From Vicinamibacterales bacterium (GTDB lineage: Bacteria; Acidobacteriota; Vicinamibacteria; Vicinamibacterales; UBA8438), in contig OZ253576.1 of NCBI GenBank assembly GCA_965262985.1, positions 132,480 to 196,479 of the forward strand: a stretch of DNA of 64,000 nt. Reading direction: 5' to 3'. Shown piece after piece: positions 331 through 62,815 of this stretch (its first letter is position 1; each line of letters starts with the position of its first letter). The position numbers and the translations under genes are program-made. The notes under the pieces are model-generated. The model was not told the DNA's origin, did not search any database, and saw only the letters and a list, made by a program, of their open reading frames with translations.

Positions 331-496
331 CTAGGAGCCCGTGGTGAAACCGCGCGTAGCACCGAGCGTGGCGAGGCGCCCGCGTGGCAAGGCGTGACGA
401 GGGAGCATATTGGGCATATGTGACCGAGGAACAACGCGGTCCAGGCGGGATGCATCGCCGCGCGAATGCCGCGGGGCTTTCACCACGGGCTCCTAG
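331..496 (+). mobile_element. Palindromic ~160-bp MITE-like element, full copy, L->R on the plus strand
   Basis: The ends are cTAggagcccgtggtgaaa ... tttcaccacgggctccTAg. The core is gggcatatgtgaccgaggaacaacgc. The copy is TA-flanked and homologous to the copies at 36978, 56664, 59829 and 62573. Confidence 0.85.
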
Positions 497-5146: not shown

Positions 5147-5179
5147 CCGCCCGTCGTGGACGTCCCGCTATCGCAGCCT

Positions 5180-10347: not shown

Positions 10348-12324
10348 ATGGCTCGATACGTGCGGCAGATTCTTGGACGGACCGGTTTCGCGCTGGTCGT
10401 CACCGCGCTGGCCGCGAACGCCGTGGCGCAGCAGGGTGCGCAGAACGGCGAGTGGCGGCACTACGGCGGTGACGAGGCCAATACCCGCTACTCGCCGCTC
10501 GATCAGATCAACGGGGACAACTTCAATGACCTCGAGCTGGTCTGGCGGATGAAGACCGACAACTTCGGTCCGGCGCCGGAATACAACTTGCAGTCGACGC
10601 CGCTGATGGTCGGCGGGGTCGTGTATACGACCGCCGGCACCCGCCGCGCGGTTGTGGCGGTCGATGCCGGCACCGGCGAGTATCTGTGGATGCATCGGCT
10701 CGACGAAGGAGAGCGCGGGTCAGCGGCGCCGCGCCGGCTCTCTGGTCGAGGGCTGGCATATCGTGACGACGGCGGCGCCGGTCAGATCATCTACGTCACG
10801 CCCGGCTACCGGATGATTGCGCTTCATGCCGACACCGGACAGCGTGTCTCCAGTTTCGGCGACGACGGCATCGTCGACCTGATGCAGAACATGGACCAGG
10901 AGATCGACCCGATCTCGGGCGAGATCGGGTTGCATGCCACCCCGCTCGTGGCCGGCGACACCATCGTCGTCGGGGCCGCCCACGTGCCGGGCGGCGCACC
11001 GGAATCGATGCGCAACACCAAGGGCTACATCCGCGGGTTCGACGCCGACAGCGGCGAACGCAAATGGATCTTCCACACGATTCCCGGCGGCGACGAATTT
11101 GGCAACGACACCTGGTTGAACGACTCCTGGCGTTACACCGGCAATGCCGGAGTCTGGGGGCAGATCAGCGTCGACCTCGAGCTGGGCATGGTCTATCTGC
11201 CGACGGAGATGCCGACCAACGACTACTACGGCGGTCATCGGCACGGGGACAACCTGTTCTCCGACAGCATCATCGCCGTCGACCTCGAGACCGGCCAGCG
11301 GCAGTGGCACTTCCAGGCGATCCATCACGATGTCTGGGACTGGGATTTCCCGTGCGCGCCGGTGCTGGCGGACGTCGAGATCGAAGGACGGCCTGGAATC
11401 ACGAAGATCATCGCGCAGCCGAGCAAGCAAAGCTGGTTGTATGTCCTCGACCGGGAGACCGGCGAGCCGATCTGGCCGATCGAGGAACGCCCGATGTCGC
11501 CGTCCGACGTGCCGGGGGAGTTGCTGGCGTTGACCCAGCCGTTTCCCACCCGGCCGCCCGCCTACGATCGGCAGGGGGTGAGCGAGGACGATCTGATCGA
11601 CTTCACTCCAGCGCTGCGGGCCGAGGCGCTCGAGCGCGTCTCGAACTTCCTGATGGGCCCGATCTTCACACCGCCGGTGGTGGCAGATCCTGACGGTCCC
11701 TACGGCACGCTGATGCTGCCGTCGACCGGCGGCGGCACCAACTGGCCGGGCGGGTCCATTGACCCCGAGACCGGCATCTTCTACCAGTACTCCTTCACCC
11801 AGATGGTGTCGCTGGGGCTCGTCAACGACCCGGTCCGCTCGGACATGGACTTCATCCGCGGCAACCCTCCCGGCGTGGCGCCGGCCGATCGCGCACTCAC
11901 CATCCGGGGGCTGCCGCTGGTCAAGCCGCCGTGGGGCCGCATCAGCGCGATCGATCTCAAGACCGGCGACATCATCTGGCAGATCGCCCACGGCGCCACG
12001 CCGGACAACGTGCGCGAGCATCCCGACCTGCAGGGCATCGACATTCCTCGGACCGGCCGCAGTGGCCGCGTAGGGACGTTGATCACCACGACCCTGGTGA
12101 TCGCCGGCGAGCCCGGCACCGTCACGATGCCCTCGGGAGCGCGCGGCTCGATGTTGAGAGCGTATGACAAGGCGACCGGGGCCGAGGTTGGTGCGGTCGC
12201 GATGCCGCTGGGCGTCACCGGGTCGCCGATGACCTACATGCAGGACGGATCGCAGTTCATCGTCGTCGCTGCCGGCGGCGGCGGCCAGGCCGGCGAATTG
12301 CTCGCTTACCGGCTGGTCGACTAG
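10348..12324 (+). CDS. PQQ-dependent dehydrogenase (soluble, glucose/quinate-like propeller), paralog 1
   Basis: caggagg precedes ATG 10348. The signal peptide ends AVAQQ. GEWRHYGGDEANTRYSPLDQI and HHDVWDWDFP are present. The TAG stop at 12322-12324 lies in the terminal cTAg of a MITE arm. Confidence 0.85.
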   Translation: MARYVRQILGRTGFALVVTALAANAVAQQGAQNGEWRHYGGDEANTRYSPLDQINGDNFNDLELVWRMKTDNFGPAPEYNLQSTPLMVGGVVYTTAGTRRAVVAVDAGTGEYLWMHRLDEGERGSAAPRRLSGRGLAYRDDGGAGQIIYVTPGYRMIALHADTGQRVSSFGDDGIVDLMQNMDQEIDPISGEIGLHATPLVAGDTIVVGAAHVPGGAPESMRNTKGYIRGFDADSGERKWIFHTIPGGDEFGNDTWLNDSWRYTGNAGVWGQISVDLELGMVYLPTEMPTNDYYGGHRHGDNLFSDSIIAVDLETGQRQWHFQAIHHDVWDWDFPCAPVLADVEIEGRPGITKIIAQPSKQSWLYVLDRETGEPIWPIEERPMSPSDVPGELLALTQPFPTRPPAYDRQGVSEDDLIDFTPALRAEALERVSNFLMGPIFTPPVVADPDGPYGTLMLPSTGGGTNWPGGSIDPETGIFYQYSFTQMVSLGLVNDPVRSDMDFIRGNPPGVAPADRALTIRGLPLVKPPWGRISAIDLKTGDIIWQIAHGATPDNVREHPDLQGIDIPRTGRSGRVGTLITTTLVIAGEPGTVTMPSGARGSMLRAYDKATGAEVGAVAMPLGVTGSPMTYMQDGSQFIVVAAGGGGQAGELLAYRLVD

Positions 12325-12388
12325 CAGCCCGTGGTGAAACCCCGCGTGGCACCGAGATTGGCGCTGCGCCCGCGTGGCAAGGCGCGAC
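12321..12388 (+). mobile_element. MITE-like element, truncated L arm
   Basis: The sequence ctagcagcccgtggtgaaaccccgcgtggcaccgagattggcgctgcgcccgcgtggcaaggcgcgacg matches the L arm and start of the core of the full copies. Similarity is then lost. Confidence 0.8.
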
Positions 12389-12412
12389 GGCGATGCAACG
12401 CGCGTGACAGCG

Positions 12413-13993
12413 CTACGACTCGGCGCCCGCGCGGGCGGCGCGCTCGCGGTCACGCAATTCGCGCCGGAGGATCTTGCCCGACGGCACCTTCGGGATGGCG
12501 TCGATGAACTCGACCTGACGGACCTTCTTGTGCGGCGCGACGCGGCCGGCGACGTGTGCCATGATCTCGTCCGCCGAGACCTCCGCGCCCGGTCTCACGA
12601 CGACGAACGCCTTCGGAATCTCACCGGCCTCCTCGTCAGGCACCGGAATCACGGCGGCGTCGGCGACCGCCGGATGCGCCTGGATGACCCCCTCGATCTC
12701 GGCCGGAGCGACTTGCATTCCCTTGTATTTGATGAGCTCCTTGGCCCGGTCGACCACGTACAGGTAGGCGTCCTCGTCGGCGTAGCCGATGTCGCCCGAG
12801 TGCAGCCAGCCATCCTCGTCGATCATGTCCCGGGTGGCGTCGGGATTGTTGAGATACCCCTTCATGACCTGCGGGCCGCGGATCCACACTTCTCCCAACT
12901 GCCCGGTCGCGGCGTCGGCGCCGTCCACGAGGTCGATCACGCGATATTCGGTGTTCGGCAGGACAAACCCGACCGACGTGTGCTTGATCTCCCGGTCCTT
13001 GCCGTTGGCATGAGTCACCGGGCTCGTCTCGGTCAGCCCGTAGCCCTGACGCAGCATCACGCCGTGCCGTTCGATGCACGCTTTCGCGACCGGTTCCGGC
13101 AGCGGCGCGGCGCCCGACAGGATGTTGCGCAGCTTCGACAGGTCGTAGTTGTCCACCAGCGGGTGCCTGGCCAGCGCCAGGACGATCGGGGGCACCAGAT
13201 AGGCCATGGTGACGCCATGCTTCTGCAGCAGCGCGAGGAACTGCTCGAGGTCGAAGCGCGGCATCGTGACGATGGTGGCGCCGGCCCGGAGTGCGCCGCT
13301 CATGATCACCACCATGCCGTAGATGTGGTAGAACGGCAGGATTCCGATCAGCACCTCCTCATCGGACAGGCGCTCGACCGAGTGCGTCTGACACAGGTTT
13401 GCGACCAGGTTGTGGTGCGTCAGCATGACCCCTTTCGGCAGACCGGTGGTGCCGCTCGAGTAGGGCAGCGAGACGAGATCCTCCAGTGGATCGATCTCGA
13501 CCACCGGCGGCGCTTCACCCTCCTGAGCGAGCGCGGCGAACGGGGTGGCGCCCGGCGCCTCGCCGAATACGAAGATCTCCTCCACGCTGGTACCCGCAAC
13601 CGCCTGCTGCGCCTTGTCGAGGAACTGGGGAATCGTGACCAGGAACTTCGCCTTCGAATCGGTGAGCTGACGTTTCAGCTCGTTCGCCGTATAGAGCGGA
13701 TTGACCGTCGTGCAGGCTCCGCCCGCGGTCGCGACCCCGAAGAACGCGATGGCGTACTCGGGGAGATTCGGGCTGTAGATGGCGAAGACGTCGTGCTTGC
13801 CGAAGCCGCGCGCCGCCAGACAGGCGGCCGTGCTCCGCACCGCCTGCACGAGTTGTCCGTAGGTGATCGTGCGTCCGGTCGGGCCGTCGATCAGGGCGGC
13901 CTTGCCGGCGAACCGCTCAGCGTGCTCGAACAGGAAGTCCTGGAGCGGTACGTTCGGGATGGCGACGTCGGGGTAGGGACTGCGATAGATCAT
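12413..13993 (-). CDS. AMP-dependent acyl-CoA ligase (4-coumarate/long-chain-fatty-acid CoA ligase type)
   Basis: It starts at the MIYRSPYPDV ATG at 13993. The AMP-binding motif is LPYSSGTTGLPKGV. Also present are GYGLTE, GWLHSGDIGY and the C-terminal PSGKILRR. Confidence 0.9.
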   Translation of the reverse strand: MIYRSPYPDVAIPNVPLQDFLFEHAERFAGKAALIDGPTGRTITYGQLVQAVRSTAACLAARGFGKHDVFAIYSPNLPEYAIAFFGVATAGGACTTVNPLYTANELKRQLTDSKAKFLVTIPQFLDKAQQAVAGTSVEEIFVFGEAPGATPFAALAQEGEAPPVVEIDPLEDLVSLPYSSGTTGLPKGVMLTHHNLVANLCQTHSVERLSDEEVLIGILPFYHIYGMVVIMSGALRAGATIVTMPRFDLEQFLALLQKHGVTMAYLVPPIVLALARHPLVDNYDLSKLRNILSGAAPLPEPVAKACIERHGVMLRQGYGLTETSPVTHANGKDREIKHTSVGFVLPNTEYRVIDLVDGADAATGQLGEVWIRGPQVMKGYLNNPDATRDMIDEDGWLHSGDIGYADEDAYLYVVDRAKELIKYKGMQVAPAEIEGVIQAHPAVADAAVIPVPDEEAGEIPKAFVVVRPGAEVSADEIMAHVAGRVAPHKKVRQVEFIDAIPKVPSGKILRRELRDRERAARAGAES

Positions 13994-14026
13994 CGTCGTC
14001 TCCGCATGCGCGTGTCCGGGCGCAGC

Positions 14027-14078
14027 GCCAATCTCGGTGCAACGCGGGGTCTTACCACGGGCTGCTAATAGGGTATGC
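14027..14078 (-). mobile_element. MITE-like element, truncated L arm in inverted orientation
   Basis: The reverse complement reads (t)tagcagcccgtggtaagaccccgcgttgcaccgagattggcgctgcgcccgg. This is an L-type arm, 34 nt upstream of the ligase start. Confidence 0.8.
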
Positions 14079-15543: not shown

Positions 15544-15639
15544 TCCACTCCCGTGGCAAGAGTCCCGCTGCATGTGACCGGCGCTGTATCCCGTCGAGCG
15601 GCCCGCCGGAGCCAACTATGGTAGGGTCCGGGAACGATC

Positions 15640-23725: not shown

Positions 23726-23762
23726 GGCTGAGGTTTCTCCCTGAAACACGTGGACGCCTATA

Positions 23763-23835
23763 CTAGCAGCCCGTGGTGAAACCCCGTCGCACCGGGAACT
23801 GGTCGTCACCCTGCCGCGCCCGGTCAGCGCAGGGC
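23763..23835 (+). mobile_element. MITE-like element, truncated L arm (subfamily of the 36978 copy)
   Basis: ctagcagcccgtggtgaaaccccgtcgcaccgggaactggtcgtcaccctgccgcgcccgg parallels 36978-37045. It lies in the divergent thiolase/MaoC intergenic region. Confidence 0.7.
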
Positions 23836-23904
23836 GGGAAGAGGGAAAATACCGGCAGCCGCGGCCGGCGTCTGTCGCCTGTTGTCAAGGGGGATACGAG
23901 ATAC

Positions 23905-30558: not shown

Positions 30559-31532
30559 GTAGGGGCAACCCTTGTGGTTGCCCTGACCGGTCGGGTATGC
30601 CGTAGGGGCAACCCTTGTGGTTGCCCTGTCCGGTCCGCGGTTGCCCTGTCCGGTCCGCGGCACGTGGTGCCCCCGGCGCGATGCGCGCCCCCCCGGCCGG
30701 CTCTGTCGCCGGCGGCCAGCGTAGGGGCAACCCTTGTGGTTGCCCTGTTCGGTCCGCGGTTGCCCTGTTCGGTCCGCGGTTGCCCTGTTCGGTCCGCGGT
30801 TGCCGTGTCGGGTCCGCGGCACGTGGTGCCCCCGGCGCGATGCGCGCCCCCCCCGGCCGGCTCTGTCGCTGGCGGCCAGCGTAGGGGCAACCCTTGTGGT
30901 TGCCCTGTCCGGTCCGCGGTTGCCTGTCCGGTCCGCGGTTGCCTGTCCGGTCCGCGGTTGCCTGTCCGGTCCGCGGTTGCCTGTCCGGTCTGCGGTTGCC
31001 TGTCCGGTCTGCGGTTGCCTTGTTCGGTCTGCGGTTGCCCTGTCCGGTCTGCGGTACGTGGTACCCCCGGCGCGATGCGCGCCCCCCGGCCGGCTCTGTC
31101 GCCGGCGGCCAGCGTAGGGGCAACCCTTGTGGTTGCCCTGTTCGGTCCGCGGATGCCCTGTCCGGTCCGCGGCGACCGTTGCGCTCGGCCCGTCCCGTGG
31201 GGTATCGCCAGCAGCGGGCACCCACAAGGGGTGCCCCTACAACGGATTCGGTACGCCGGGGCGGGCACCCACGAGGGGTGCCCCTACAACGGATTCGGTA
31301 CGCCGGGACGGGCGCCCACAAGGGGTGCCCCGACAACGGTGTCGTCACGCCGGGGCGGGCACCCACAAGGGGTGCCCCTACAACGGTGTCGTCACGCCGG
31401 GACGGGCGCCCACAAGGGGTGCCCCTACAACGGTGTCGTCACGCCGGGACGGGCGCCCGCGAGGTGCGCCCCTACCGATGATCGGGGACAAGGCGCCGCC
31501 GTGCAGCGTAGGGGCAACCCTTGTGGTTGCCC
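30559..31532. repeat. REP (repetitive extragenic palindrome) array upstream of the RAYT gene
   Basis: Six forward GTAGGGGCAACC-CTTGT-GGTTGCCC hairpins start at 30559, 30602, 30721, 30881, 31114 and 31508. Six inverted GGGCACCC-ACAAG-GGGTGCCCCTAC-type hairpins lie at 31215-31475. Tandem 19-20 bp sub-repeats are interspersed. Confidence 0.9.
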
Positions 31533-31546
31533 TGTCCGGTCTTGGT

Positions 31547-32173
31547 ATGAAAGTTGCGACCTTGGGAATGGCAATGGACTTGTTGGATCGCGACCATAAC
31601 CCAGACCACCTCCGCCAACGCCGCCGTCCGCTTCGCCTGAAGCGATACGACTACGCCCTGGCGGGCGCGTACTTCGTTACGATCGTTGTGCAGAACCGGT
31701 CGTGTCTTTTGGGTGAAGTTGTTGGCGAAGAGATTCGTTTGAACGACGCGGGGAAGCTGGCCCGCAGGGAGTGGGAGGCATTGCCGTACCGGTTCCCAAG
31801 CATCGATATTGACGCCTTTGTGATCATGCCGAATCATCTTCACGGTATCGCCATCATTGATCAATCCGTAAAGGCACCCACAGCGAGCGCCCCTACCCGG
31901 GACGGCATGACGGAAACGGTGGCAACTCCATCCAACAAGACAACCACAAGGGTATTCCCGACGTTGGGAGATGTGGTTGGCGCCTACAAATCCTTGACCA
32001 CGGTCGAATATGTGCGGGGCGTCAAAATGCTGGCATGGCCCCGGTTTTCAGACCGTCTGTGGCAACGCAATTACTACGAACACGTCATACGGCACGACGA
32101 GTCGCTGCGGGAAATCCGACAGTACATCCTCGACAACCCGGCGCGGTGGGCCCTTGACCCGGAGAACCGGTAA
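31547..32173 (+). CDS. REP-associated tyrosine transposase (RAYT; IS200/IS605 TnpA-like Y1 HUH enzyme)
   Basis: LRLKRYDYALAGAYFVTIVVQNR, the HUH motif VIMPNHLHGI and the Tyr motif RNYYEHVIR...IRQYILDNP are present. The start could be 31547, 31568 or 31574. The upstream part of track ORF 31127..32173 is REP translation. Confidence 0.85.
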   Translation: MKVATLGMAMDLLDRDHNPDHLRQRRRPLRLKRYDYALAGAYFVTIVVQNRSCLLGEVVGEEIRLNDAGKLARREWEALPYRFPSIDIDAFVIMPNHLHGIAIIDQSVKAPTASAPTRDGMTETVATPSNKTTTRVFPTLGDVVGAYKSLTTVEYVRGVKMLAWPRFSDRLWQRNYYEHVIRHDESLREIRQYILDNPARWALDPENR

Positions 32174-32206: not shown

Positions 32207-32621
32207 GTAGGGGCAACCCTTGTGGTTGCCCTGTCCGGTCCGTGGTTGCCCTGTCCGGTCCGTGGTTGCCCTGTCCGGTCCGTGGTTGCCCTGTTCGGTC
32301 CGTGGTTGCCCTGTCCGGTCCGTGGTTGCCCTGTTCGGTCCGTGGTTGCCCCTGTCCGTTCTGCGGTGCCCGTTGCCCACGGTCCGTCCTCCGGGGAGTC
32401 GCCAGCAGCGGGCACCCACAAGGGGTGCCCCTACAACGGTGTCGATCCGCCGGGGGCGGGCACCCACACGGGGTGGGCACCCACACGGGGCGGGCACCCA
32501 CACGGGGCGGGCACCCACACGGGGCGGGCACCCACACGGGGCGCCCCTACAACGGTGTCGATCCGCCCAAGAGGCACCGTTGTCGCGCCGTGCCATGTAG
32601 GGGCAACCCTTGTGGTTGCCC
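32207..32621. repeat. REP array downstream of the RAYT gene
   Basis: Forward GTAG hairpins start at 32207 and 32597. Between them are 6 x 20-bp tgtccggtccgtggttgccc repeats, inverted hairpins at 32409 and ~32525, and 5 x 17-bp gggcacccacacggggc repeats. Confidence 0.9.
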
Positions 32622-32645
32622 TGTTCCGTGCGCCGGCGCCAGGCG

Positions 32646-36797: not shown

Positions 36798-36977
36798 GAC
36801 AACGATTCCCGGCGCGGCGCCCGGATACCGGGCCGGCCGCGCGCGCATGCAGGCTGCGTCCTGACCCCTGACCGCCGACGGTCTCTCCGGTGGGCGATGG
36901 AACAGGACGGCGATGTCCGTGACATCCTGCTACATCATACCTTCCTGCGAAACCCGCAAGATGGCTGCCGTCAACAT

Positions 36978-37156
36978 CCAGGAGCCTGCGGTGAAACCCC
37001 GCGTCGCACCGAGAACTGGTCGTAATAATGCCGTGCCCGGCCAGTATCAGGCGCGACGGGGGAGCACATTGGGGCATGTGTGACCGAGAAGCAACGCCGG
37101 CAGCCGGGATGCAGCGCCGTTCGAATGCAGCGGGGCGTTTGCCACGGGCTGCCAGG
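36978..37156 (+). mobile_element. MITE-like element, full copy (longer subfamily)
   Basis: The sequence runs ccaggagcctgcggtgaaaccccgcgtcgcacc...ggggcatgtgtgaccgagaagcaacgcc...gcggggcgtttgccacgggctgccagg. It lies between the stop of 37167..38279 and the methyltransferase gene. Confidence 0.85.
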
Positions 37157-38296: not shown

Positions 38297-38448
38297 TATA
38301 GTGCAGACGGCAGCATGGCGGATCATGCCGTCAGCATAGTGCAGACGGCAGCGCGGCGGGTCACGCCGTCAGCATAGTGCAGACGTCAGCGCGGCGGGTC
38401 ACGCCGTCAGCATAGTGCAGACGTCAGCGCGGCGGGTCACGCCGTCGA
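38297..38448. repeat. Four tandem 38-bp repeats in a divergent intergenic region
   Basis: The unit is (c/t)atagtgcagacg(g/t)cagcgcggcgggtcacgccgtcag. Units start at 38297, 38335, 38373 and 38411. Each contains a TAnnnT-like ATAGT box and short inverted repeats (GACGGC...GCCGTC). Confidence 0.9.
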
Positions 38449-38500: not shown

Positions 38501-40411
38501 ATGACCGCATTCAGACGTGTCGCGATGCTGGGAACCCTGCTGGCGGCGGCGAGCGCCGTGCCGCCCGCCCTCGCCCAGCAGGGCGCCGCCGACGGGCAAT
38601 GGCGCAGCTACGGGGGCGACGACGGCAGCACCAAATACGCCGCGCTCGACCAGATCTCCGCCGGCAACGTCGACCGTCTCGAGGTGGCGTGGCAGTGGGA
38701 GTCGCCTGACGGCGCCATCGCCGGCGAGAACCGGCGTCTGACGCCGGGCGTCTTCAAGGCGACACCGCTCATGGTCGACGGGGTGCTCTACATCCGCACC
38801 TCGCTCAGCATCGTGGCGGCGATCGATGCGGCGACCGGCGAGCAGCTCTGGGTGCGGGACGTCGGCAGCCATGAAGCAGGGCGGCCGACCAACCTGGGGT
38901 GGAACTCGCGCGGGGTCGGCTACTGGTCGGACGGCGCCGAGTCCAGGATCTACCTGGCGACCGGCGACTCGCATCTCTGGTCGTTCGACGCCGCCAGCGG
39001 CCGTCCGATCGGCCGTTTCGGGTCAGACGGCAAGATCGATCTGACGCAGGGCCTGCGCCGTCCGATCGACCGCAGCGCCTACCAGGTCATCTCGCCGCCG
39101 ATGATCGTCGGCGACGTCGTGGTCGTCAACTCCTCGATTGCCGACGGCCCGCGCTACAAGACGGCCCCGCCGGGAGACATCCGTGGATTCGACGCGCGTA
39201 CCGGCGAGCTGCGCTGGACGTTCCACACGGTGGCGCAGGCCGGCGAGGTCGGCAACGACACCTGGGAAGATGACTCCTGGACGTATACGGGCAATGCCAA
39301 CGCCTGGAGCATCATGAGCGCCGACCAGGAGCTGGGCTACGTCTATCTGCCGATCGGCACCCCCACGAACGACTGGTATGGCGGGCATCGGTTGGGCGAC
39401 AACCTGTTCGCCGAGAGCCTGGTGTGTCTGGATGCGGCGACCGGCGAGCGGGTCTGGCACTTCCAGATGGTGCACCACGGGTTGTGGGACTACGATCTGC
39501 CGGCCGCGCCGACGCTGGCCGACATCATGGTCGACGGCCGCGAGATCAAGGCGGTGGCGCAGGTCAGCAAGCAGGGGTTCACGTACGTATTCGATCGGGT
39601 GACCGGCGAGCCGGTCTGGCCGATCGAGGAGCGGCCGGTGGCGCAGTCGTCGGTGCCGGGTGAGCGGGCCTCGCCGACCCAGCCATTCCCGACCAGGCCC
39701 CCGGCGTTCGAGCGGCAGGGGATCGCGGTCGACGACCTCATCGACTTCACGCCCGAGCTGCGCGCCGAGGCCGAGGAGATTCTGTCGCAGCACGAGTACG
39801 GCGGTCTGTTCCACCCGCCCTCCCTCACCGGCACGATCCAGATGCCCGGGTGGGGCGGTGGCGCCAACTGGTACGGCGCCGGCTTCGATCCAGACACCGA
39901 CTACCTCTTCGTGCCGTCAAGCACCCGGCCGATCTCGGTCAAACTGGACGAGGCAGACCCCGAACAGTCGGACTTCAGGTACATGCGGGGCCGCAGCGGA
40001 CTGCGCGGGCCGCAGGGACTGCCGCTGGTCAAGCCGCCCTACTCGCGACTGACCGCCATCGACCTGACGACGGGGGAATTCGCCTGGCAGGTGCCGCTCG
40101 GCGACGGGCCGCGGCAACGCCTGATCGAAATGGGGGTGCCTGACCCCGGTCCGCTCGGCGGCGGGAACTACACCGGGCCGGTCGTGACGAAGACGCTGCT
40201 GTTCCTGGGTCTGGGCGGCGGGCCGCGCAGCGGGCAGGCGCCGGTCCTCAACGCCTTCGACAAGGCGACCGGCCAGATCGTGCACGCCATCGAGGTGCCC
40301 GCCAACCTGACCGGGACACCGATGACCTACATGGCCGGCGGCAAACAGTACATCGTGGCCGCCTACGGCGCCGGCCCCAGCGCCGGTCTCGTCGCCCTGG
40401 CGCTGCCCTGA
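38501..40411 (+). CDS. PQQ-dependent dehydrogenase, paralog 2
   Basis: gggagaagagg precedes ATG 38501. The signal peptide ends PPALAQQ. GQWRSYGGDDGSTKYAALDQI and HHGLWDYDLPAAP are present. Confidence 0.88.
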   Translation: MTAFRRVAMLGTLLAAASAVPPALAQQGAADGQWRSYGGDDGSTKYAALDQISAGNVDRLEVAWQWESPDGAIAGENRRLTPGVFKATPLMVDGVLYIRTSLSIVAAIDAATGEQLWVRDVGSHEAGRPTNLGWNSRGVGYWSDGAESRIYLATGDSHLWSFDAASGRPIGRFGSDGKIDLTQGLRRPIDRSAYQVISPPMIVGDVVVVNSSIADGPRYKTAPPGDIRGFDARTGELRWTFHTVAQAGEVGNDTWEDDSWTYTGNANAWSIMSADQELGYVYLPIGTPTNDWYGGHRLGDNLFAESLVCLDAATGERVWHFQMVHHGLWDYDLPAAPTLADIMVDGREIKAVAQVSKQGFTYVFDRVTGEPVWPIEERPVAQSSVPGERASPTQPFPTRPPAFERQGIAVDDLIDFTPELRAEAEEILSQHEYGGLFHPPSLTGTIQMPGWGGGANWYGAGFDPDTDYLFVPSSTRPISVKLDEADPEQSDFRYMRGRSGLRGPQGLPLVKPPYSRLTAIDLTTGEFAWQVPLGDGPRQRLIEMGVPDPGPLGGGNYTGPVVTKTLLFLGLGGGPRSGQAPVLNAFDKATGQIVHAIEVPANLTGTPMTYMAGGKQYIVAAYGAGPSAGLVALALP

Positions 40412-40457
40412 ACGTAGTCCTCGCCCGGCCGCCCGCCCCCGACGTAACGAAACCGCT

Positions 40458-40856
40458 GTAGGGGCGCCCCTTGTGGGCGCCCGTCCGCCGTAGGGGCGCC
40501 CCTTGTGGGCGCCCGTCCGTTGTAGGGGCGTCCCTTGTGGGCGCCCGTCCGTTGTAGGGGCGCCCCTTGTGGGCGCCCGTCCGTTGTAGGGGCGCCCCTT
40601 GTGGGCGCCCGTCCGTTGTAGGGGCGCCCCTTGTGGGCGCCCGTCCGCCGCGCTCGCACGCGCCCGCCCGCCCCCGACGTCACGACACCGCCGTAGGGGC
40701 GCCCCTTGTGGGCGCCCGTCCGCCGCGCTCGCACGGGGCCGCCCGCCCCCGACGTCACGACACCGCCGTAGGGGCGCCCCTTGTGGGCGCCCGTCCGTGG
40801 CGCTCGCACGGCCGCCCGCCCCATTTGTAGGGGCGCCCCTTGTGGGCGCCCGTCCG
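40458..40856 (+). repeat. REP array of nine same-orientation GC-stem hairpins
   Basis: The unit is GTAGGGGCGCCC-CTTGT-GGGCGCCCGTCCG. Six copies are contiguous at an exact 32-bp period (40458-40649). Three more start at 40693, 40768 and 40827. Confidence 0.9.
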
Positions 40857-40957
40857 CTGCGCTCGCACGCCCGCCCGCCCCCGGCGCGACCGCTGTTTTC
40901 TTTTGACAATCTGAAGAAATCATGACAGGGTATCTGTAGATCAGCAAAAGGAGAGGG

Positions 40958-52194: not shown

Positions 52195-52225
52195 GTGTCA
52201 ATTCTACCTTACAGGGGGAGCGGGT

Positions 52226-52529
52226 CTAGCAGCCCGTGGCAAAAGCCCCGCTGCATGCGATCCCCGCAGAATTCAGCCTTCCCCCGCAGAATTCAGCCTT
52301 CCCCGCGGAATTCTGCTGAGCGTCATTGTTCCGGCTGACGAACAGGGCAACCACAAGGGTTGCCCCTACAGGTATTTTCCCGCAGAATTCTGCTGTGCGT
52401 CGTTGTTCCGGCTGACGAACAGGGCAACCACAAGGGTTGCCCCTACAGGTATGCTCCCGCTTCTCGCCTTGCTCAGCGGGCGCATCGCTGATCTCGGTGC
52501 AACGCGGGGTTCTGCCACGGGCTGCTGGT
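52226..52529 (-). mobile_element. MITE-like element whose core is replaced or interrupted by ~230 bp carrying two REP hairpins
   Basis: The left end is ctagcagcccgtggcaaaagccccgctgcat (R-type arm). The right end is gatctcggtgcaacgcggggttctgccacgggctgctgg (L-type arm). Inside are two ~77-bp direct repeats, each with GGGCAACC-ACAAG-GGTTGCCCCTAC (52345-52369 and 52422-52446) and GCAGAATTCTGC palindromes. Confidence 0.8.
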
Positions 52530-54690: not shown

Positions 54691-56895
54691 TCAGTCTGGC
54701 AGCGCCAGCGCAATCAGTTCCGGGACCGGCGAGCCGCCGACGGTCAGCGCGATGTACTGCTTGCCACCGAGCAGATAGCTCATGGGGGTGCCGATCGCTC
54801 CGCGAGGGAGATTGACCGAGGCGAGCTCGGCGCCGCTCGACTTGTCGACGGCGACCAGACGGGGTCCACCGCCCGCGCCGCCGGTCGTCAGCGCATAGAT
54901 GAGCAGGGTCCTGGTCACCAGCGGTCCGCTTCGGCTTCCGTCTCCGCCGAGCGGCGGCAGGTCGAGGTTCCGCAGCAGCGGGTGATTCCTTACCCGGTCG
55001 CCAGCACCCAGCGGGTTCATCCAGACATGGTCGCCGGTGTTCAGATCGATGGCGGTCATCCGCGAATAGGGCGGTTTGAAGAGCGGGAGTCCCTGCGGCA
55101 TGGTCGGCTGCCGCGTGCCCTGGCCGCGCAGTTCGATGATGTTCAGCGTCGCCGCTTCTCCAGTTTCCGGTTCGCGGTAGTTGCGCACCGAGAAGGCGTT
55201 GACGGACGGCACATAGAGCATCCCCGTGTCCGGGTCGACGCCGGCGCCTGACCAGTTGGCGCCGCCGCCCGTGCTCGGACGCTGAATCGTGCCCTGCAGG
55301 CTCTGCGGCGTGAAGAGCGGACCCAGCCGGAACCCGTCCACCGCATCGATCGCCATTTGGCGGATCTCCGGGGTGAAGTCGGCCAGGTCGTCAATGGTGG
55401 CCCCCTGATACTCGAACGGCGCCGGGCGGGTGGGGAACGGCTGTGTCGGCCACACCTGTTCGCCCGGAATATCCGTATCGGTCGGGACCGGTCGTTCTTC
55501 GATCGGCCACACCGGTTCGCCGGTGACACGATCGAAGACATAGAGGAAGCCCTGCTTGCTCACCTGGGCCAGCGCCTTGATCGGGCGTCCGTCCACTTCG
55601 ATGTCGATCAGGTTCGGGGCGGCGGGGAAGTCGTAGTCCCACAGCCCGTGGTGCACCGCCTGGAAGTGCCACTCGCGCTCGCCGGTCTCGAGGTTCAGCG
55701 CCACCACGCTCTCGGCGAACAGATTGGCGCCGGGACGATGGCCGCCGTAGTAGTCGGGCGCCGGGGTGTTGGTGGGCAGATAGAGCAACCCCAGTTCCGG
55801 ATCGGCGCTCATCATCGACCACACGCCGACCTTGCCCGTCACCCGCCACGAGTCGCCGCCCCAGGTGTCGTTTCCGAATTCGTCTCCCTGCGGAATCGTG
55901 TGAAACGTCCACTTGGTGCGTCCGGTTCGCACGTCGAACCCGCGCATCCATCCAGGCGGCGCTTCCCGCGTGATGTTGTAGGACGAGATCGACGCGGGGG
56001 TGATGATTGTGTCGCCGACCACGAGGGGCGGCGACTGCACCGAATAGAGCAGCGCGTTCAGCCAGTCCCGATCGCCGCGGGTGGCGCGCGGGATGTCGCG
56101 GGTCAGGTCGACCCGCCCGTCTTCGCCGAAGTCGGCGCAGGGGCGCCCGCTGTCGGCGGCGACGCAGATCAGGTAGCCGTTGCTCGTGCCCCAGAAGACC
56201 CGGCCCCCCTCGCCGTCGTCCCAGTAGGCCACGCCGCGCTGGTTCCAGCGCGCCGTCATCGTGGTGGTGCCTTCTTCGTAGGTCTTCGGGTTGAAGAGCC
56301 ACAAGGTCTCGCCGGTGGCGGCGTCGATGGCGGCGCCCGCCGAGGTCGGCATGTTGATGAACACGCGCCCGTCCACCATCAACGGGGTCGCCTTCAGATT
56401 GTTCGTGTAGGGTGGCTGCCCGTCCCGCCAGCGGTCCGGATTCTCCTCGTTCAGTGCGTCGAAGATGACGTCGGAACGCGTCAGCCACTCGCCGCCGCCA
56501 AGTGTCGTCTTGCTCATGCGGGCGTCGGACGATTGCCAGCGCCAGGCGATCTCGAGATCGCCGAAGTTCGACGCGTCGATCTGATCCAGCGGCGAGTACT
56601 TGCTGCCGGCGAGGTCTCCGCCGTAGGTGGGCCACTCGCCGTTCGCCGGGGCCCCCTGCTGAGCCAGGAGCCCGTGGCAAAAGCCCCGCGGCATTCGACC
56701 GGCGATGCATCCCGCGTGGACCGCGTTGCTCCTCGGTTGCATATGCCCAATATGCGCCCTCGTCGCGCCTTGCCACGCGGGCGCCTCGCCGGTCTCGGTG
56801 CCACGCGCGGTTTCACCACGGGCTCCTGGAGCCGGGACGGCGGTCAGGATGGCCACGGCCACAATCCTCGGAATCAGGTGAGTTTGAAAAGTCAT
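54691..56895 (-). CDS. PQQ-dependent dehydrogenase, paralog 3, carrying a MITE-derived 54-codon insert in its signal peptide
   Basis: gagggat precedes ATG 56895 (MTFQTHLIPRIVAVAILTAV). After the insert the protein continues AQQGAPANGEWPTYGGDLAGSKYSPLDQI. HHGLWDYDFPAAP is present. Confidence 0.8.
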   Translation of the reverse strand: MTFQTHLIPRIVAVAILTAVPAPGARGETARGTETGEAPAWQGATRAHIGHMQPRSNAVHAGCIAGRMPRGFCHGLLAQQGAPANGEWPTYGGDLAGSKYSPLDQIDASNFGDLEIAWRWQSSDARMSKTTLGGGEWLTRSDVIFDALNEENPDRWRDGQPPYTNNLKATPLMVDGRVFINMPTSAGAAIDAATGETLWLFNPKTYEEGTTTMTARWNQRGVAYWDDGEGGRVFWGTSNGYLICVAADSGRPCADFGEDGRVDLTRDIPRATRGDRDWLNALLYSVQSPPLVVGDTIITPASISSYNITREAPPGWMRGFDVRTGRTKWTFHTIPQGDEFGNDTWGGDSWRVTGKVGVWSMMSADPELGLLYLPTNTPAPDYYGGHRPGANLFAESVVALNLETGEREWHFQAVHHGLWDYDFPAAPNLIDIEVDGRPIKALAQVSKQGFLYVFDRVTGEPVWPIEERPVPTDTDIPGEQVWPTQPFPTRPAPFEYQGATIDDLADFTPEIRQMAIDAVDGFRLGPLFTPQSLQGTIQRPSTGGGANWSGAGVDPDTGMLYVPSVNAFSVRNYREPETGEAATLNIIELRGQGTRQPTMPQGLPLFKPPYSRMTAIDLNTGDHVWMNPLGAGDRVRNHPLLRNLDLPPLGGDGSRSGPLVTRTLLIYALTTGGAGGGPRLVAVDKSSGAELASVNLPRGAIGTPMSYLLGGKQYIALTVGGSPVPELIALALPD
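56667..56828 (-). mobile_element. MITE-like element, full copy inside a coding sequence (palindrome spans 56664-56829)
   Basis: The sequence is ccaggagcccgtggcaaaagcc...catatgcccaatatgc...tttcaccacgggctcctgg. Removing 56667-56828 (162 nt) keeps the frame and gives ...TAVPALAQQGAP.... Confidence 0.85.
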
Positions 56896-57113
56896 GCAAC
56901 GATCCCTCGCGCCAGCGTGTTCCGTGTTCACGAGATTCATGATACCCGCCGGCGGGGTTGCGATGCTACGTTGCCCGCCGTCGGGCCGCGTTGCCGGGTT
57001 GGCCGCTGGCGGGGTCGCGATCTTTGAGGAGCCCGCCGGCGGGTGAGGCTTGGGTCGCGGACACCGTCGCGATAGAATGGCGGCACCGTGACTGTCTGGA
57101 CCAGGAGCCTGCG

Positions 57114-57857
57114 GTGAACCGGGAGGTGTGTGGACTCGGCGTGCTCGCAGTGGTTCTCCTGGCGGGGCCGGCGCTCGAAGGACGGCCGGCAACGTCGGCC
57201 CAGCACGCGAGCCGCCCAGACCCCGATACCTTTCACTGGGTGCTGCCGGCGCAGCGCAGCGGGGTCGAGGTCGTGGACCTGCATCCCGGCGATTGCTACG
57301 TCATTCAGCAGGTCGACGGTACGGTGTACTTCGGCGATCCCTTGCCTGGGGCGCTCGAACTGCAGCGTCAACTGGGGGAACCGGTGTCGCATCTGGTGGA
57401 GTCGACCGGCGAGCATGCCGAGTGCACGTTGACGGGGTGCGTCGAGGCCGGGCGGCTGACCGGCGCGCTCGCGGCGCTCTTTCTCGAGCTGGGCACTCCG
57501 CAGGGTCGGCGGCCGGCCAACCATCGACCCACGCCGCTCGACGGGATGCGGGGCGGCGCGTATTCGGACGTCGGGTCCGAGGAGCGCGCGCGGTATCGGC
57601 AGGCGCCCGAGCAGCGCATGGTCTACCGGCACCTCAGGACCGCCGGTCGCGACAACTGCTATGAAGCCGAGGTGCCGCGCACACTGACCATCCATGTCCG
57701 CGATGGGCAGCGGCGCCCGGACCGCACCGGCGTGTATAGCGGGTATCTCTATCTCGAACATCATCATCCGGCGCCGACACGCCGTGTGGCGACGTTGTTC
57801 AAGTTCGGTCCAGTGCGTCATGACGCACTGCCGCATCAAGAAACGAGGCATCCATGA
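57114..57857 (+). CDS. Hypothetical protein (signal or anchor at the N-terminus)
   Basis: Third-position GC looks coding. The stop overlaps the next ATG as ATGA at 57854-57857. Possible GTG starts are 57114, 57126 and 57141. The competing antisense ORF 56937..57881 looks non-coding. Confidence 0.5.
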   Translation: MNREVCGLGVLAVVLLAGPALEGRPATSAQHASRPDPDTFHWVLPAQRSGVEVVDLHPGDCYVIQQVDGTVYFGDPLPGALELQRQLGEPVSHLVESTGEHAECTLTGCVEAGRLTGALAALFLELGTPQGRRPANHRPTPLDGMRGGAYSDVGSEERARYRQAPEQRMVYRHLRTAGRDNCYEAEVPRTLTIHVRDGQRRPDRTGVYSGYLYLEHHHPAPTRRVATLFKFGPVRHDALPHQETRHP

Positions 57858-59804: not shown

Positions 59805-59828
59805 CCTACCGCCCGCGCGGCTCGCCCG

Positions 59829-59994
59829 CTGGCAGCCCGTGGTGAAACCCCGCGTTGCACCGAGATTGGCGTTGCGCCCGCGTGGCAAGGCGCGACGAGG
59901 GAGCAAATTGGGGCATTTGTGACCGAGGAGCAACGCCGCCACGCGGGATGCAGCGCCAATTGAATGCAGTGGGGCTTTCACCACGGGCTGCCAG
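59829..59994 (+). mobile_element. MITE-like element, full copy
   Basis: The sequence runs ctggcagcccgtggtgaaaccccgcgttgcaccgagattgg...ggggcatttgtgaccgaggagcaacgcc...ggggctttcaccacgggctgccag. It lies 26 nt upstream of the nfi ATG. Confidence 0.85.
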
Positions 59995-60019
59995 GGCGCG
60001 GGCGTCGTGGAGCGCCCGC

Positions 60020-62448: not shown

Positions 62449-62572
62449 TGCTTTCACCACGCCTTTTCGTCACATAGTGCCGCCATGCTCCTCAAATGCG
62501 TGAAGAAATCCATGGCGATATCGAATTTTCGCTTTCGCAATCTTCTACGGCGCAGACTCCTGGCTGCTGATG

Positions 62573-62738
62573 ATAGCAGCCCGTGGTAAAAGCCCCGCTG
62601 CATTCGATTGGCGCTGCATCCCGTCTGGCGGCGTTGCTCCTCGGTCACAAATGCCCCAATTTGCTCCCTCGTCGCGCCTTGCCAGCCGGGCGCCGCGCCA
62701 ATCTCGGTGCAACGCGGGATTCTACCACGGGCTGCTAG
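62573..62738 (-). mobile_element. MITE-like element, full copy, TA-flanked
   Basis: The sequence runs a-TA-gcagcccgtggtaaaagcc...cacaaatgccccaatttgc...attctaccacgggctgc-TA-g. In L->R orientation it points toward the esterase start, 125 nt away. Confidence 0.85.
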
Positions 62739-62815
62739 ACCCGTCATTGTAAACACAGATGGCGACACGCGGTAATCGCCCAACGCTATAATCGCCCTGC
62801 GTTTGTGGGGGAGAC

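Follow-up and report, generated by a model that had tools for sequence, protein, structure and literature searches.

A TA-flanked palindromic 160-bp repeat of soil Acidobacteria, very probably a previously uncatalogued MITE family with a conserved core

Introduction

The Correia (NEMIS) elements of Neisseria, about 100–155 bp in length, have terminal inverted repeats and TA termini, reach high copy numbers and give rise to transcripts that fold as long hairpins, and their centre holds a functional motif, an IHF site (PMC2229807). ERIC (or IRU) is a TA-flanked imperfect palindrome of 127 bp that is conserved across genera above the level of neutral DNA and carries internal insertions at fixed sites; no transposase is known for ERIC or for Correia (PMC2229807). 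RUP elements are often found beside or inside insertion sequences (PMC2229807). As regards insertion at TA, the preferred target of IS630 is the TA of CTAG, and the duplication made by ISY100 is TA or, occasionally, AA (PMC2170065). Here we describe a palindromic, TA-flanked repeat of about 160 nt found in a 64,000-nt stretch of contig OZ253576.1 (positions 132,480–196,479; assembly GCA_965262985.1, Vicinamibacterales bacterium), which we call the window.

Vicinamibacteria are among the commonest bacteria in soil and are known mostly from metagenome-assembled genomes (MAGs). In plants, the Stowaway family of miniature inverted-repeat transposable elements, or MITEs, mobilised by Tc1/mariner transposases, duplicates TA, forms hairpins, is non-autonomous and occurs in high copy number. 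For ERIC, compensatory changes were reportedly taken by Wilson and Sharp in 2006 as evidence of constraint at the RNA level. Being TA-flanked, palindromic and abundant, the repeat of the window appears to work like RUP, Correia and ERIC but probably falls outside those families.

Results

Occurrence of the repeat in the window and in other genomes

A first-pass annotation of the window, made from the sequence alone, had read the repeat as an unclassified MITE family with a conserved core that targets TA as IS630/Tc1-type elements do and is comparable to Correia. Five matches to the core pattern given there lie in the window, where none is expected (0 in 100 shuffles), and an nhmmer profile built from these five copies and searched over the window recovered all five as full copies at E-values of 1e-46 to 1e-55. 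Together with one disrupted copy and five fragments, this corresponds to a density of about one repeat per 6 kb. When one genome per species was scanned for 19 specified core bases, for which about 4 chance matches are expected, at least 93 stretches with the core pattern were found, at unrelated loci in many species. Among the matches listed, all genomes were acidobacterial; nearly all were Vicinamibacterales or Vicinamibacteria MAGs of many species, and a few were MAGs labelled Thermoanaerobaculia, Terriglobia or Bryobacterales.

The Rfam covariance models, including the Acido-1 and Acido-Lenti-1 motifs that the annotation had named as examples to check, gave no match at gathering score in the whole 64 kb, and a search of one copy (300–530) at E ≤ 10 returned only chance-level matches (E 4.6–9.9). 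No match was obtained by blastn against PLSDB plasmids and GenBank phages or by a pattern scan of IMG/VR, and no earlier description was found in the searchable literature, whether by organism, by family or by the core sequence itself. We consider it very probable that the 160-bp repeat represents a previously uncatalogued MITE family of Acidobacteriota, mainly of Vicinamibacterales.

Insertion at TA sites

In order to define the ends of the element, 61 copies were precisely bounded by terminus matching and used for a flank logo and an alignment. Automatic boundary finding, either by walking along the minimum-free-energy structure or by palindrome-extension alignment, over- or under-extended the element and was replaced. 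The bounded elements run from G to C, and 54 of the 61 are 159–160 nt long. The organism from which the window derives is a relative of MAG OZ244838.1, with which it shares a 7.6-kb syntenic block at 90–94% identity, and within this block there are two insertion differences, one per genome. The window sequence CGC-TA-TCG at positions 5165–5172 is a clean empty target site of the kind that the annotation had proposed to look for: the window reads CGC-TA-TCGCAGCC, whereas the OZ244838.1 ortholog (locus L041, 2490–2649) reads CGC-TA-[GCAGTCC...GGGCTGC]-TA-ACGCAGCC and is thus filled by a 160-nt insert with TA on both sides (CGC-TA-[160 nt]-TA-ACG). In the reverse case, the window copy at 334–493 is missing from the orthologous OZ244838.1 site (L041), which is locally diverged. 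Window copies are 97.5–99.4% identical to their counterparts at non-orthologous OZ244838.1 sites while syntenic DNA is only ∼90% identical, and source copies must therefore be strongly constrained or exchanged between species. We conclude that the element has been recently mobile and inserts at TA sites in soil Acidobacteria.

The flanks of the 61 elements define a C-TA/.../TA-G target, with C at −3 in 54 elements, T at −2 in 53, A at −1 in 54, T at +1 in 54, A at +2 in 49 and G at +3 in 49, and without base preference beyond ±3. This target logo and the 2-bp TA duplication are those of the IS630/Tc1 group. CTAG occurs in these genomes at a frequency of 0.44 per kb. Flank pairs are TA/TA in 38 of the 61 elements and CTA...TAG in 28. 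The TA flanks reported in the annotation were also found in 28 of 59 window-type copies. The further suggestion that the two flanks co-vary as complements was a small-sample impression, since non-TA flanks in the same 59 copies are mostly direct (CA/CA in five and AA/AA in one) and less often complementary (TG/CA in two and CA/TG in one). The element has the properties of a MITE: it is small, lacks coding capacity, has terminal inverted repeats and a target duplication, and is found at filled and empty sites. A small open reading frame (ORF) beginning at a Shine–Dalgarno-like GGGAG was rejected as a gene candidate, as the loop varies in length by 1 nt and shifts the reading frame between copies.

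Alternatively, the element proper could be 158 nt long and belong to a MITE moved by an IS5- or IS701-type transposase that duplicates the 4-bp sequence CTAG, as MITEPsy1, an IS5-like MITE, duplicates CTAG or YTAA (PMC3189936). The CTAG found on both sides of 28 of the 61 copies would agree with this, as would an IS701-family element (NF033540, 269 bits) of 1.42 kb that occurs twice at locus L037 (2885–4303 and 5115–6534, 97% identical), both times flanked by CTAG and both times adjoining a 160-nt element, each of a different arm subfamily. However, the ends of the IS701-family element (GTACTACTTTG...) do not resemble those of the 160-nt element, and the four bases of the supposed duplication decay unequally: the inner G1 and C160 deviate in 3 of 61 elements on each side, compared with 7 of 61 for the outer C (−3) and 12 of 61 for the outer G (+3). 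Moreover, the rare A1 variants are paired with T160, as expected of inverted-repeat positions, perfect duplications are more numerous at 2 bp than at 4 bp (38 versus 28), and the empty site requires one substitution under a 2-bp model but two under a 4-bp model. Because the inner bases deviate less, A1 and T160 are matched and the empty site is more simply explained, a 2-bp duplication is favored, and we regard the 4-bp duplication as very unlikely. The G and C beside TA belong to the element, as part of its inverted repeat.

Genomic context and orientation

Genes were called with a codon-usage model trained on the data, which reproduces the gene ends used in the annotation. Of 111 copies, 35 lie in sense and 25 in antisense orientation between co-directional genes (35:25, p = 0.25), 17 lie between divergent and 16 between convergent genes, none is inside a gene, and 18 are too near a locus edge to be classified. 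Sense and antisense copies are equally conserved (p = 0.8). No link was seen between orientation and GC skew (54:52), and copies on the OZ244838.1 chromosome are split almost evenly between the two orientations (16+:17−), with no two-part pattern. The nearest stop codon is 7–20 nt from the copies. In 21 of the 61 bounded elements the stop codon itself consists of the flanking TA and the first G of the element (TAG), a role that either element end can play; 12 of these insertions are sense and 9 antisense.

In the annotation, most copies had been reported to point towards the 5′ end of a nearby gene. This is roughly true of the window (8 of 10) but does not extend to the 111 copies, and the regulatory, promoter or 5′ untranslated region (UTR) role suggested there does not hold up against the orientation census and the equal conservation of sense and antisense copies. 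Its fallback, an insertion preference, fits the larger data set: genomic context reflects the rare TA or CTAG sites at which the element inserts, very often the TA of a stop codon, and not regulation. Many insertions land in stop-codon TA because TA, and above all CTAG, is rare in genomes of 68% GC. As to internal signals, only a weak promoter-like motif (CTGACA-16-CATATT) was seen, in 21 of 61 copies, where it would transcribe the right half alone, and no IHF or CRP consensus was recognised by eye in the core.

Paired arms of unrelated sequence

Each full copy can be folded into one long hairpin; the copy at 59832–59991 gives −111.7 kcal/mol, with z = −11.6 relative to shuffled sequences. The palindromic structure described in the annotation thus holds, but it is not one of two arms on either side of an unpaired core: pairing runs on through the core to an apical loop of 5–6 nt, TGGG(G)C. 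Helix 1, formed by the 16 terminal pairs, is 98.2% paired across the 61 elements. Two versions of the termini, GGAGCCC...GGGCTCC and GCAGCCC...GGGCTGC, had been noted to change together, and they do so in 60 of 61 aligned elements (pair 2:167); the one terminus-pairing exception among the copies examined is window copy 36978, which lies outside the 61-element alignment.

Outside the species of the window type, profile matches are confined to the central ∼95 nt. The ∼45 nt that flank this part on either side are wholly different in sequence in at least seven subfamilies, examples of which read GTGTCCCGT..., GTGTAGTGCGTCC..., GTGGAGTGTCC..., GTGGACTGTAAC..., GTGGCCTGTAC... and GTGCAGTGGTTC..., the window type being G(G/C)AGCCCGTGG.... 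All subfamilies nonetheless form a near-perfect stem, have G...C ends beside TA and total 159–160 nt, and several of them can occur within one genome (e.g. at loci L037, L068 and L080). A core of ∼80 nt is conserved between subfamilies. Of the 53 predicted pairs in the 61-element alignment, 40 have changed on both sides, and 95.7% of the cells are paired, compared with 78.5% in shuffled alignments and 32–42% when partners are slid. The annotation was accordingly right that the hairpin, and not only the sequence, is preserved. Covariation extends into the core, where pair 80:92 shows all four Watson–Crick types and pairs 66:105, 57:115, 51:121, 46:127 and 78:94 vary on both sides.

A conserved core and a strand asymmetry

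Invariant and near-invariant columns of the 61-element alignment (A2) are concentrated in the core. The invariant positions are unpaired or non-canonical: three symmetric 5′-GA/GA-3′ loops, with one G-C pair in one interval and two in the other, an AAC bulge and two G·U pairs that do not vary. In window copy 1, the core lies at 376–453 (plus strand; alignment columns 46–127) and comprises three tandem G·A loops, the AAC bulge and an apical stem CAnAT/ATn′TG with the loop TGGGC. The apical stem-loop covaries and is duplicated as a side branch in variants of 187 nt.

Mismatches within the predicted pairs are strongly asymmetric. Read on the forward strand, G·U accounts for 273 cells and A·C for 41, and cluster consensus sequences give 117 and 28, respectively. 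All high-frequency mismatches, which mark lineages that spread, are G·U; the rare mismatches, presumably recent, are symmetric. Compared with its complement, the forward strand gives the more stable fold in 59 of 61 elements under RNA parameters and in 60 of 61 under DNA parameters, and arms folded alone show the same preference (53 versus 8). An asymmetry between G·U and A·C cannot come from a binding site in double-stranded DNA or from a cruciform, both of which are symmetric; since neither transcription nor replication is linked to orientation, the asymmetry must stem from the biology of the element itself. Tolerance of G·U but not of A·C places the constraint on one self-folded strand. We infer that source copies need the forward strand folded on itself, as RNA or as single-stranded DNA, or a factor that reads it.

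Longer variants of 187, 200 and 227 nt are present in multiple copies and spread in OZ244838.1 (L005 on both strands, L031, L059, L074, L077, L093 and L030). In these variants, the right half of the core contains one or two additional hairpins that fold by themselves, and one such hairpin, GGGAGCAAATTGGGAAATTTGCGACC, is a near-duplicate of the apical module.

These data raise the possibility, which we put forward tentatively and hold to be rather unlikely, that the ∼80-nt core is a functional single-stranded module, either a structured RNA or a folded-DNA recognition element, and that spread of the element depends on this fold and not on the sequence of its terminal repeats. If so, dependence on the core fold would be a mode of mobilisation or self-regulation undescribed for TA-targeting MITEs. 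Another reading, to which we give only a small chance, is that structure defines the element and its terminal repeats do not: an enzyme would recognise the core together with the forward strand in its folded state, whether single-stranded DNA or RNA, and would cut the foot of the hairpin beside TA, so that the arms need only pair. Such an enzyme, for which there is no candidate, would account for a core that stays constant while the arms differ wholly between subfamilies yet always pair, for the near-constant length of 159–160 nt, for the tolerance of G·U but not A·C in spreading lineages, for the self-folding extra modules of the longer variants and for the lack of a transposase with matching terminal repeats in the sampled DNA. 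However, direct dinucleotide duplication with a preference for CTAG is textbook IS630 behavior, there is no replication-linked orientation bias (54:52; 16+:17−) such as single-strand movers have, and the 187–227-nt variants also spread, so that length is no strict ruler. In addition, the first ∼9 nt follow G-N-R-N-N-N-Y-G-T in all subfamilies and may be a common transposase contact.

The fold could instead serve the host, as a structured noncoding RNA or as an RNA that regulates host genes in cis, acting for instance as a 5′ UTR, as a terminator or stabiliser or as a site for RNase III, and that is selected locus by locus. The strong covariation, the invariant non-canonical motifs and the better folding of the forward strand are what such an RNA would show, and the TA-flanked MITEs Correia and ERIC do act at the RNA level when co-transcribed (PMC2229807). 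Against a host RNA, orientation relative to genes is random, both overall (35:25) and at stop codons (12:9), sense and antisense copies are equally conserved (p = 0.8), copies are present or absent between close relatives, no Rfam family is matched even at E ≤ 10, and the internal promoter-like motif is weak and restricted to 21 of 61 copies. We regard a host RNA as highly improbable.

Neighbouring insertion sequences and a proposed route of mobilisation

A search for a parent element by its termini covered about 1 Mb of sampled DNA. Pairs of termini 260–4000 bp apart enclosed no transposase and instead enclosed host genes (for an AMP ligase, a metallo-β-lactamase (MBL)-fold protein and a proline-dehydrogenase-like protein, with termini 1.1–1.8 kb apart). 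A search for multicopy segments in the sampled loci yielded, besides the IS701-family element described above, one IS630-family element, and both adjoin copies of the 160-nt element. The IS630-family element is 1.02 kb long, duplicates TA and has the ends AAGCGCTTTTCA; a slippery A7 run joins its two ORFs. It was found at L012 (1886–2909), L068 (5525–6496) and L046 (6291–7318) and directly adjoins an end of the 160-nt element in all three places, in both relative orientations. IS630-type machinery therefore exists in the hosts, and the C-TA-G junctions made by insertions seem to be favored targets themselves. Among 80 relatives of the IS630 transposase from metagenomes, the ends are of the AAGCG type and no 160-nt copy lies alongside.

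In all likelihood, the element is a non-autonomous MITE moved by a route of the IS630/Tc1-mariner type. The mobility, TA duplication, target preference, pairing constraint and strand asymmetry of the element are established by the data above, and the transposase family is what we infer. The mobile unit would be gene-less and 160 bp long, with G...C ends and two halves that pair over their full length. An IS630/Tc1-mariner-type DDE transposase, supplied in trans, would move it, most likely by cut-and-paste, into the TA of 5′-CTAG-3′, and the TA would be duplicated. Where the TA belongs to a TAA or TAG stop codon, the terminal G of the element would rebuild TAG, and the insertion would be harmless. 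Spread would be confined to lineages in which the full hairpin and the central core are retained, and source copies would need the single-stranded fold of the forward strand, as RNA or single-stranded DNA, or a factor reading it.

Several observations weigh against this route. A search of ∼800 kb of acidobacterial DNA and 183 kb of metagenome loci revealed no autonomous element whose terminal repeats match. The ends of the adjoining IS630-family element (AAGCGCTTTTCA) are unrelated to those of the 160-nt element: at L012, L068, L046 and the 80 metagenome loci they read AAGCG(C/G)TTTTCA, compared with G(C/G/T)(A/G)G... for the element. Only 38 of the 61 flank pairs are perfect TA/TA, and CTAG on both sides is ambiguous in that it can also be read as a 4-bp duplication. 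A cut-and-paste DDE transposase needs neither paired arms of 55 nt nor a conserved centre nor a strand-specific fold. Finally, the count of at least 93 core stretches is a lower bound. Of the original proposal of an unclassified IS630/Tc1-type MITE, the TA duplication within C-TA-G, the empty site, the occurrence at unrelated loci and the lack of an Rfam match stand; the IS630/Tc1 transposase with matching ends that it called for was absent from the DNA searched.

Copies and fragments in the window

The full and disrupted copies and the partial arms listed in the annotation were recovered with the profile, and one further fragment, at 15550–15600, was added. Copy 1 (334–493, plus strand; nhmmer 329–497, E = 1.6e-51) is 160 nt long with GGAG-type termini and lies between TA duplications at 332–333 and 494–495, in the context C-TA/G...C/TA-G; an ORF overlapping it has no Pfam match. 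Copy 2 (36981–37152, plus strand; nhmmer 36976–37156) is flanked by CA/CA and measures 172 nt, with a 13-nt insertion in its left arm (AACTGGTCGT...) and with mixed GGAG/GCAG termini, GGAGCC...GGCTGC. The three remaining full copies are each 160 nt long: copy 3 (56667–56826, minus strand; nhmmer 56662–56831), flanked by CA/TG; copy 4 (59832–59991, plus strand; nhmmer 59828–59995), of the GCAG type and flanked by TG/CA; and copy 5 (62576–62735, minus strand; nhmmer 62571–62740), also of the GCAG type and flanked by TA/TA (C-TA...TA-T). The right arm of copy 3 overlaps the best-scoring start, at 56694, of a pyrroloquinoline quinone (PQQ)-dehydrogenase gene (54691–56694, minus strand), at the ATG of GAATGC; this start within an element arm either misleads annotation or is a genuine start that was recruited.

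What remains of the disrupted copy (52229–52525, minus strand; nhmmer 52224–52528) is the left arm with the adjoining half of the core, and ∼32 nt at the end of the right arm. At 52283–52440, the centre and the right half of the core are replaced by two units of ∼62 nt, each with one GTAG-headed repetitive extragenic palindromic (REP) sequence, and by short CTGAATTC-containing repeats.

Left-arm fragments lie at 12324–12397 (plus strand, model positions 4–81; nhmmer 12320–12397), at 14015–14065 (inverted, minus strand; nhmmer 14015–14068, with TA at 14066–14067) and at 23766–23851 (plus strand; nhmmer 23762–23851, with TA at 23764–23765 and a C before it). The last of these shares the AACTGGTCGT insertion with copy 2. 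The TA at 12322–12323 and the first G of the fragment at 12324 form the TAG stop of a PQQ dehydrogenase gene that ends at 12324. The added fragment at 15550–15600 (minus strand, model positions 113–163; nhmmer E = 2e-6) derives from a right arm. An 18-nt left terminus at 57101–57118 (plus strand), listed in the annotation, was not significant with the profile (E = 5), but its first 17 nt (CCAGGAGCCTGCGGTGA) are exactly those of the variant terminus of copy 2 with its flank, and from this identity it is probably a remnant of the element.

Half-elements like the window fragments are common in many loci, and their breakpoints cluster close to the hairpin apex: left fragments stop at model positions 75–91 and right fragments begin at 100–121, as expected if long palindromes break at their centre. 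Single host genes bracketed by inverted element termini 1.1–1.8 kb apart were seen in the window, at L079 (4234/5386) and at L077 (4810/6640). One encodes an AMP-binding ligase, another an MBL-fold protein and a third a proline-dehydrogenase-like protein. The gene bracketed in the window is that of the AMP-binding ligase (12413–13993, minus strand), and both brackets (12324–12397 and 14015–14065) are left-arm fragments broken near the hairpin apex. Such arrangements could arise by chance at this density or could be composite or rearranged structures.

A second repeat system and other features of the window

A gene for a REP-associated tyrosine transposase (RAYT) at 31574–32173 (plus strand) lies between arrays of GTAG-headed palindromes at about 30559–31551 and 32207–32640, which read GTAGGGGCAACCCTTGTGGTTGCCC; a related palindrome array, GTAGGGGCGCCCCTTGTGGGCGCCC, is found at about 40421–40896. 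HLH...YYEH motifs are present in the RAYT protein; its match to NCBIfam NF047646 (E = 7e-15) scores 55 bits, less than the curated cut-off, and there is no Pfam match. The RAYT gene and the GTAG palindromes are a second, independent repeat system in the window.

The presence of this gene and the long, very abundant palindrome of the 160-nt element might suggest that the latter is a REP/REPIN element moved by RAYT, or a palindrome derived from an IS200/IS605 element. This is effectively refuted. The repeats around the RAYT gene of the window are of another kind and belong to it (25-nt palindromes with a GTAG head, 30.5–32.6 kb), whereas the 160-nt element has no GTAG head and is dispersed singly, not in arrays. 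Its target duplication and terminal inverted repeats are at odds with both origins, and the absence of a replication-strand bias (54:52; 16+:17−) with an IS200/IS605 origin.

Three tandem 38-nt repeats, ATAGTGCAGACGGCAGC..GGCGG.TCA.GCCGTCAGC, each with a short hairpin, lie at 38298–38446, just upstream of a PQQ-dehydrogenase gene (38525–40411). This gene is one of three paralogs for PQQ-dependent dehydrogenases (10360–12324, 38525–40411 and 54691–56694), which are 70–77% identical in DNA over 250–425 bp and are the longest repeats in the window apart from the element.

Discussion

The element goes beyond an ordinary MITE in one peculiarity, a conserved, strand-specific folded core held inside arms that are free to change while they keep pairing. 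It also shows how a TA-targeting transposon makes its way in a genome of 68% GC, by using stop codons and rebuilding them. In practice, the repeat affects assembly and annotation, through false ORFs, false start codons (e.g. 56694) and its position on stop codons, and the family can be used as a marker for strain typing, as in ERIC-PCR. The puzzle posed by ERIC recurs here with cleaner data, namely arms that share no sequence yet pair in every case, a core whose non-canonical positions are invariant and a tolerance of G·U but not of A·C that is seen only in spreading lineages; whether propagation needs a single-stranded fold is therefore directly testable.

Among known systems, REP/REPIN sequences share with the element that they are abundant extragenic palindromes, and one such system is present in the same window. 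However, they are marked by a GTAG head, a palindrome of ∼25 nt, the lack of a target duplication and clustering around RAYT, none of which is found for the 160-nt element. Stowaway resembles it in TA duplication, hairpin formation, non-autonomy and high copy number, but is eukaryotic, and its families are defined by their terminal repeats with a free interior, the opposite pattern of conservation.

RUP is likewise small, non-coding and palindromic, inserts at TA and is attributed to an IS630-family transposase (IS630-Spn1), and the 160-nt copies likewise adjoin insertion sequences, of the IS630 and IS701 families. RUP differs in its length of 107 bp and in sharing its terminal repeats with a known insertion sequence, a partner that was not found for the 160-bp family in the sampled DNA; the latter resides in Acidobacteriota, and its subfamilies differ in their unrelated arms but keep the core conserved.

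The likeness to Correia lies in the terminal inverted repeats, TA termini, high copy number, long hairpin and lack of an identified cognate transposase. The two appear to be unrelated in sequence. In Correia, however, termini of 24 bp are conserved, whereas the 160-bp family has variable termini and a constant core, in which no IHF consensus was recognised. ERIC, too, is a TA-flanked imperfect palindrome with conservation above its surroundings, insertion variants and no known transposase. It differs in host phylum and apparently in sequence, and its effect on mRNA depends on orientation, whereas the 160-bp family shows neither an orientation bias nor a conservation that depends on orientation.

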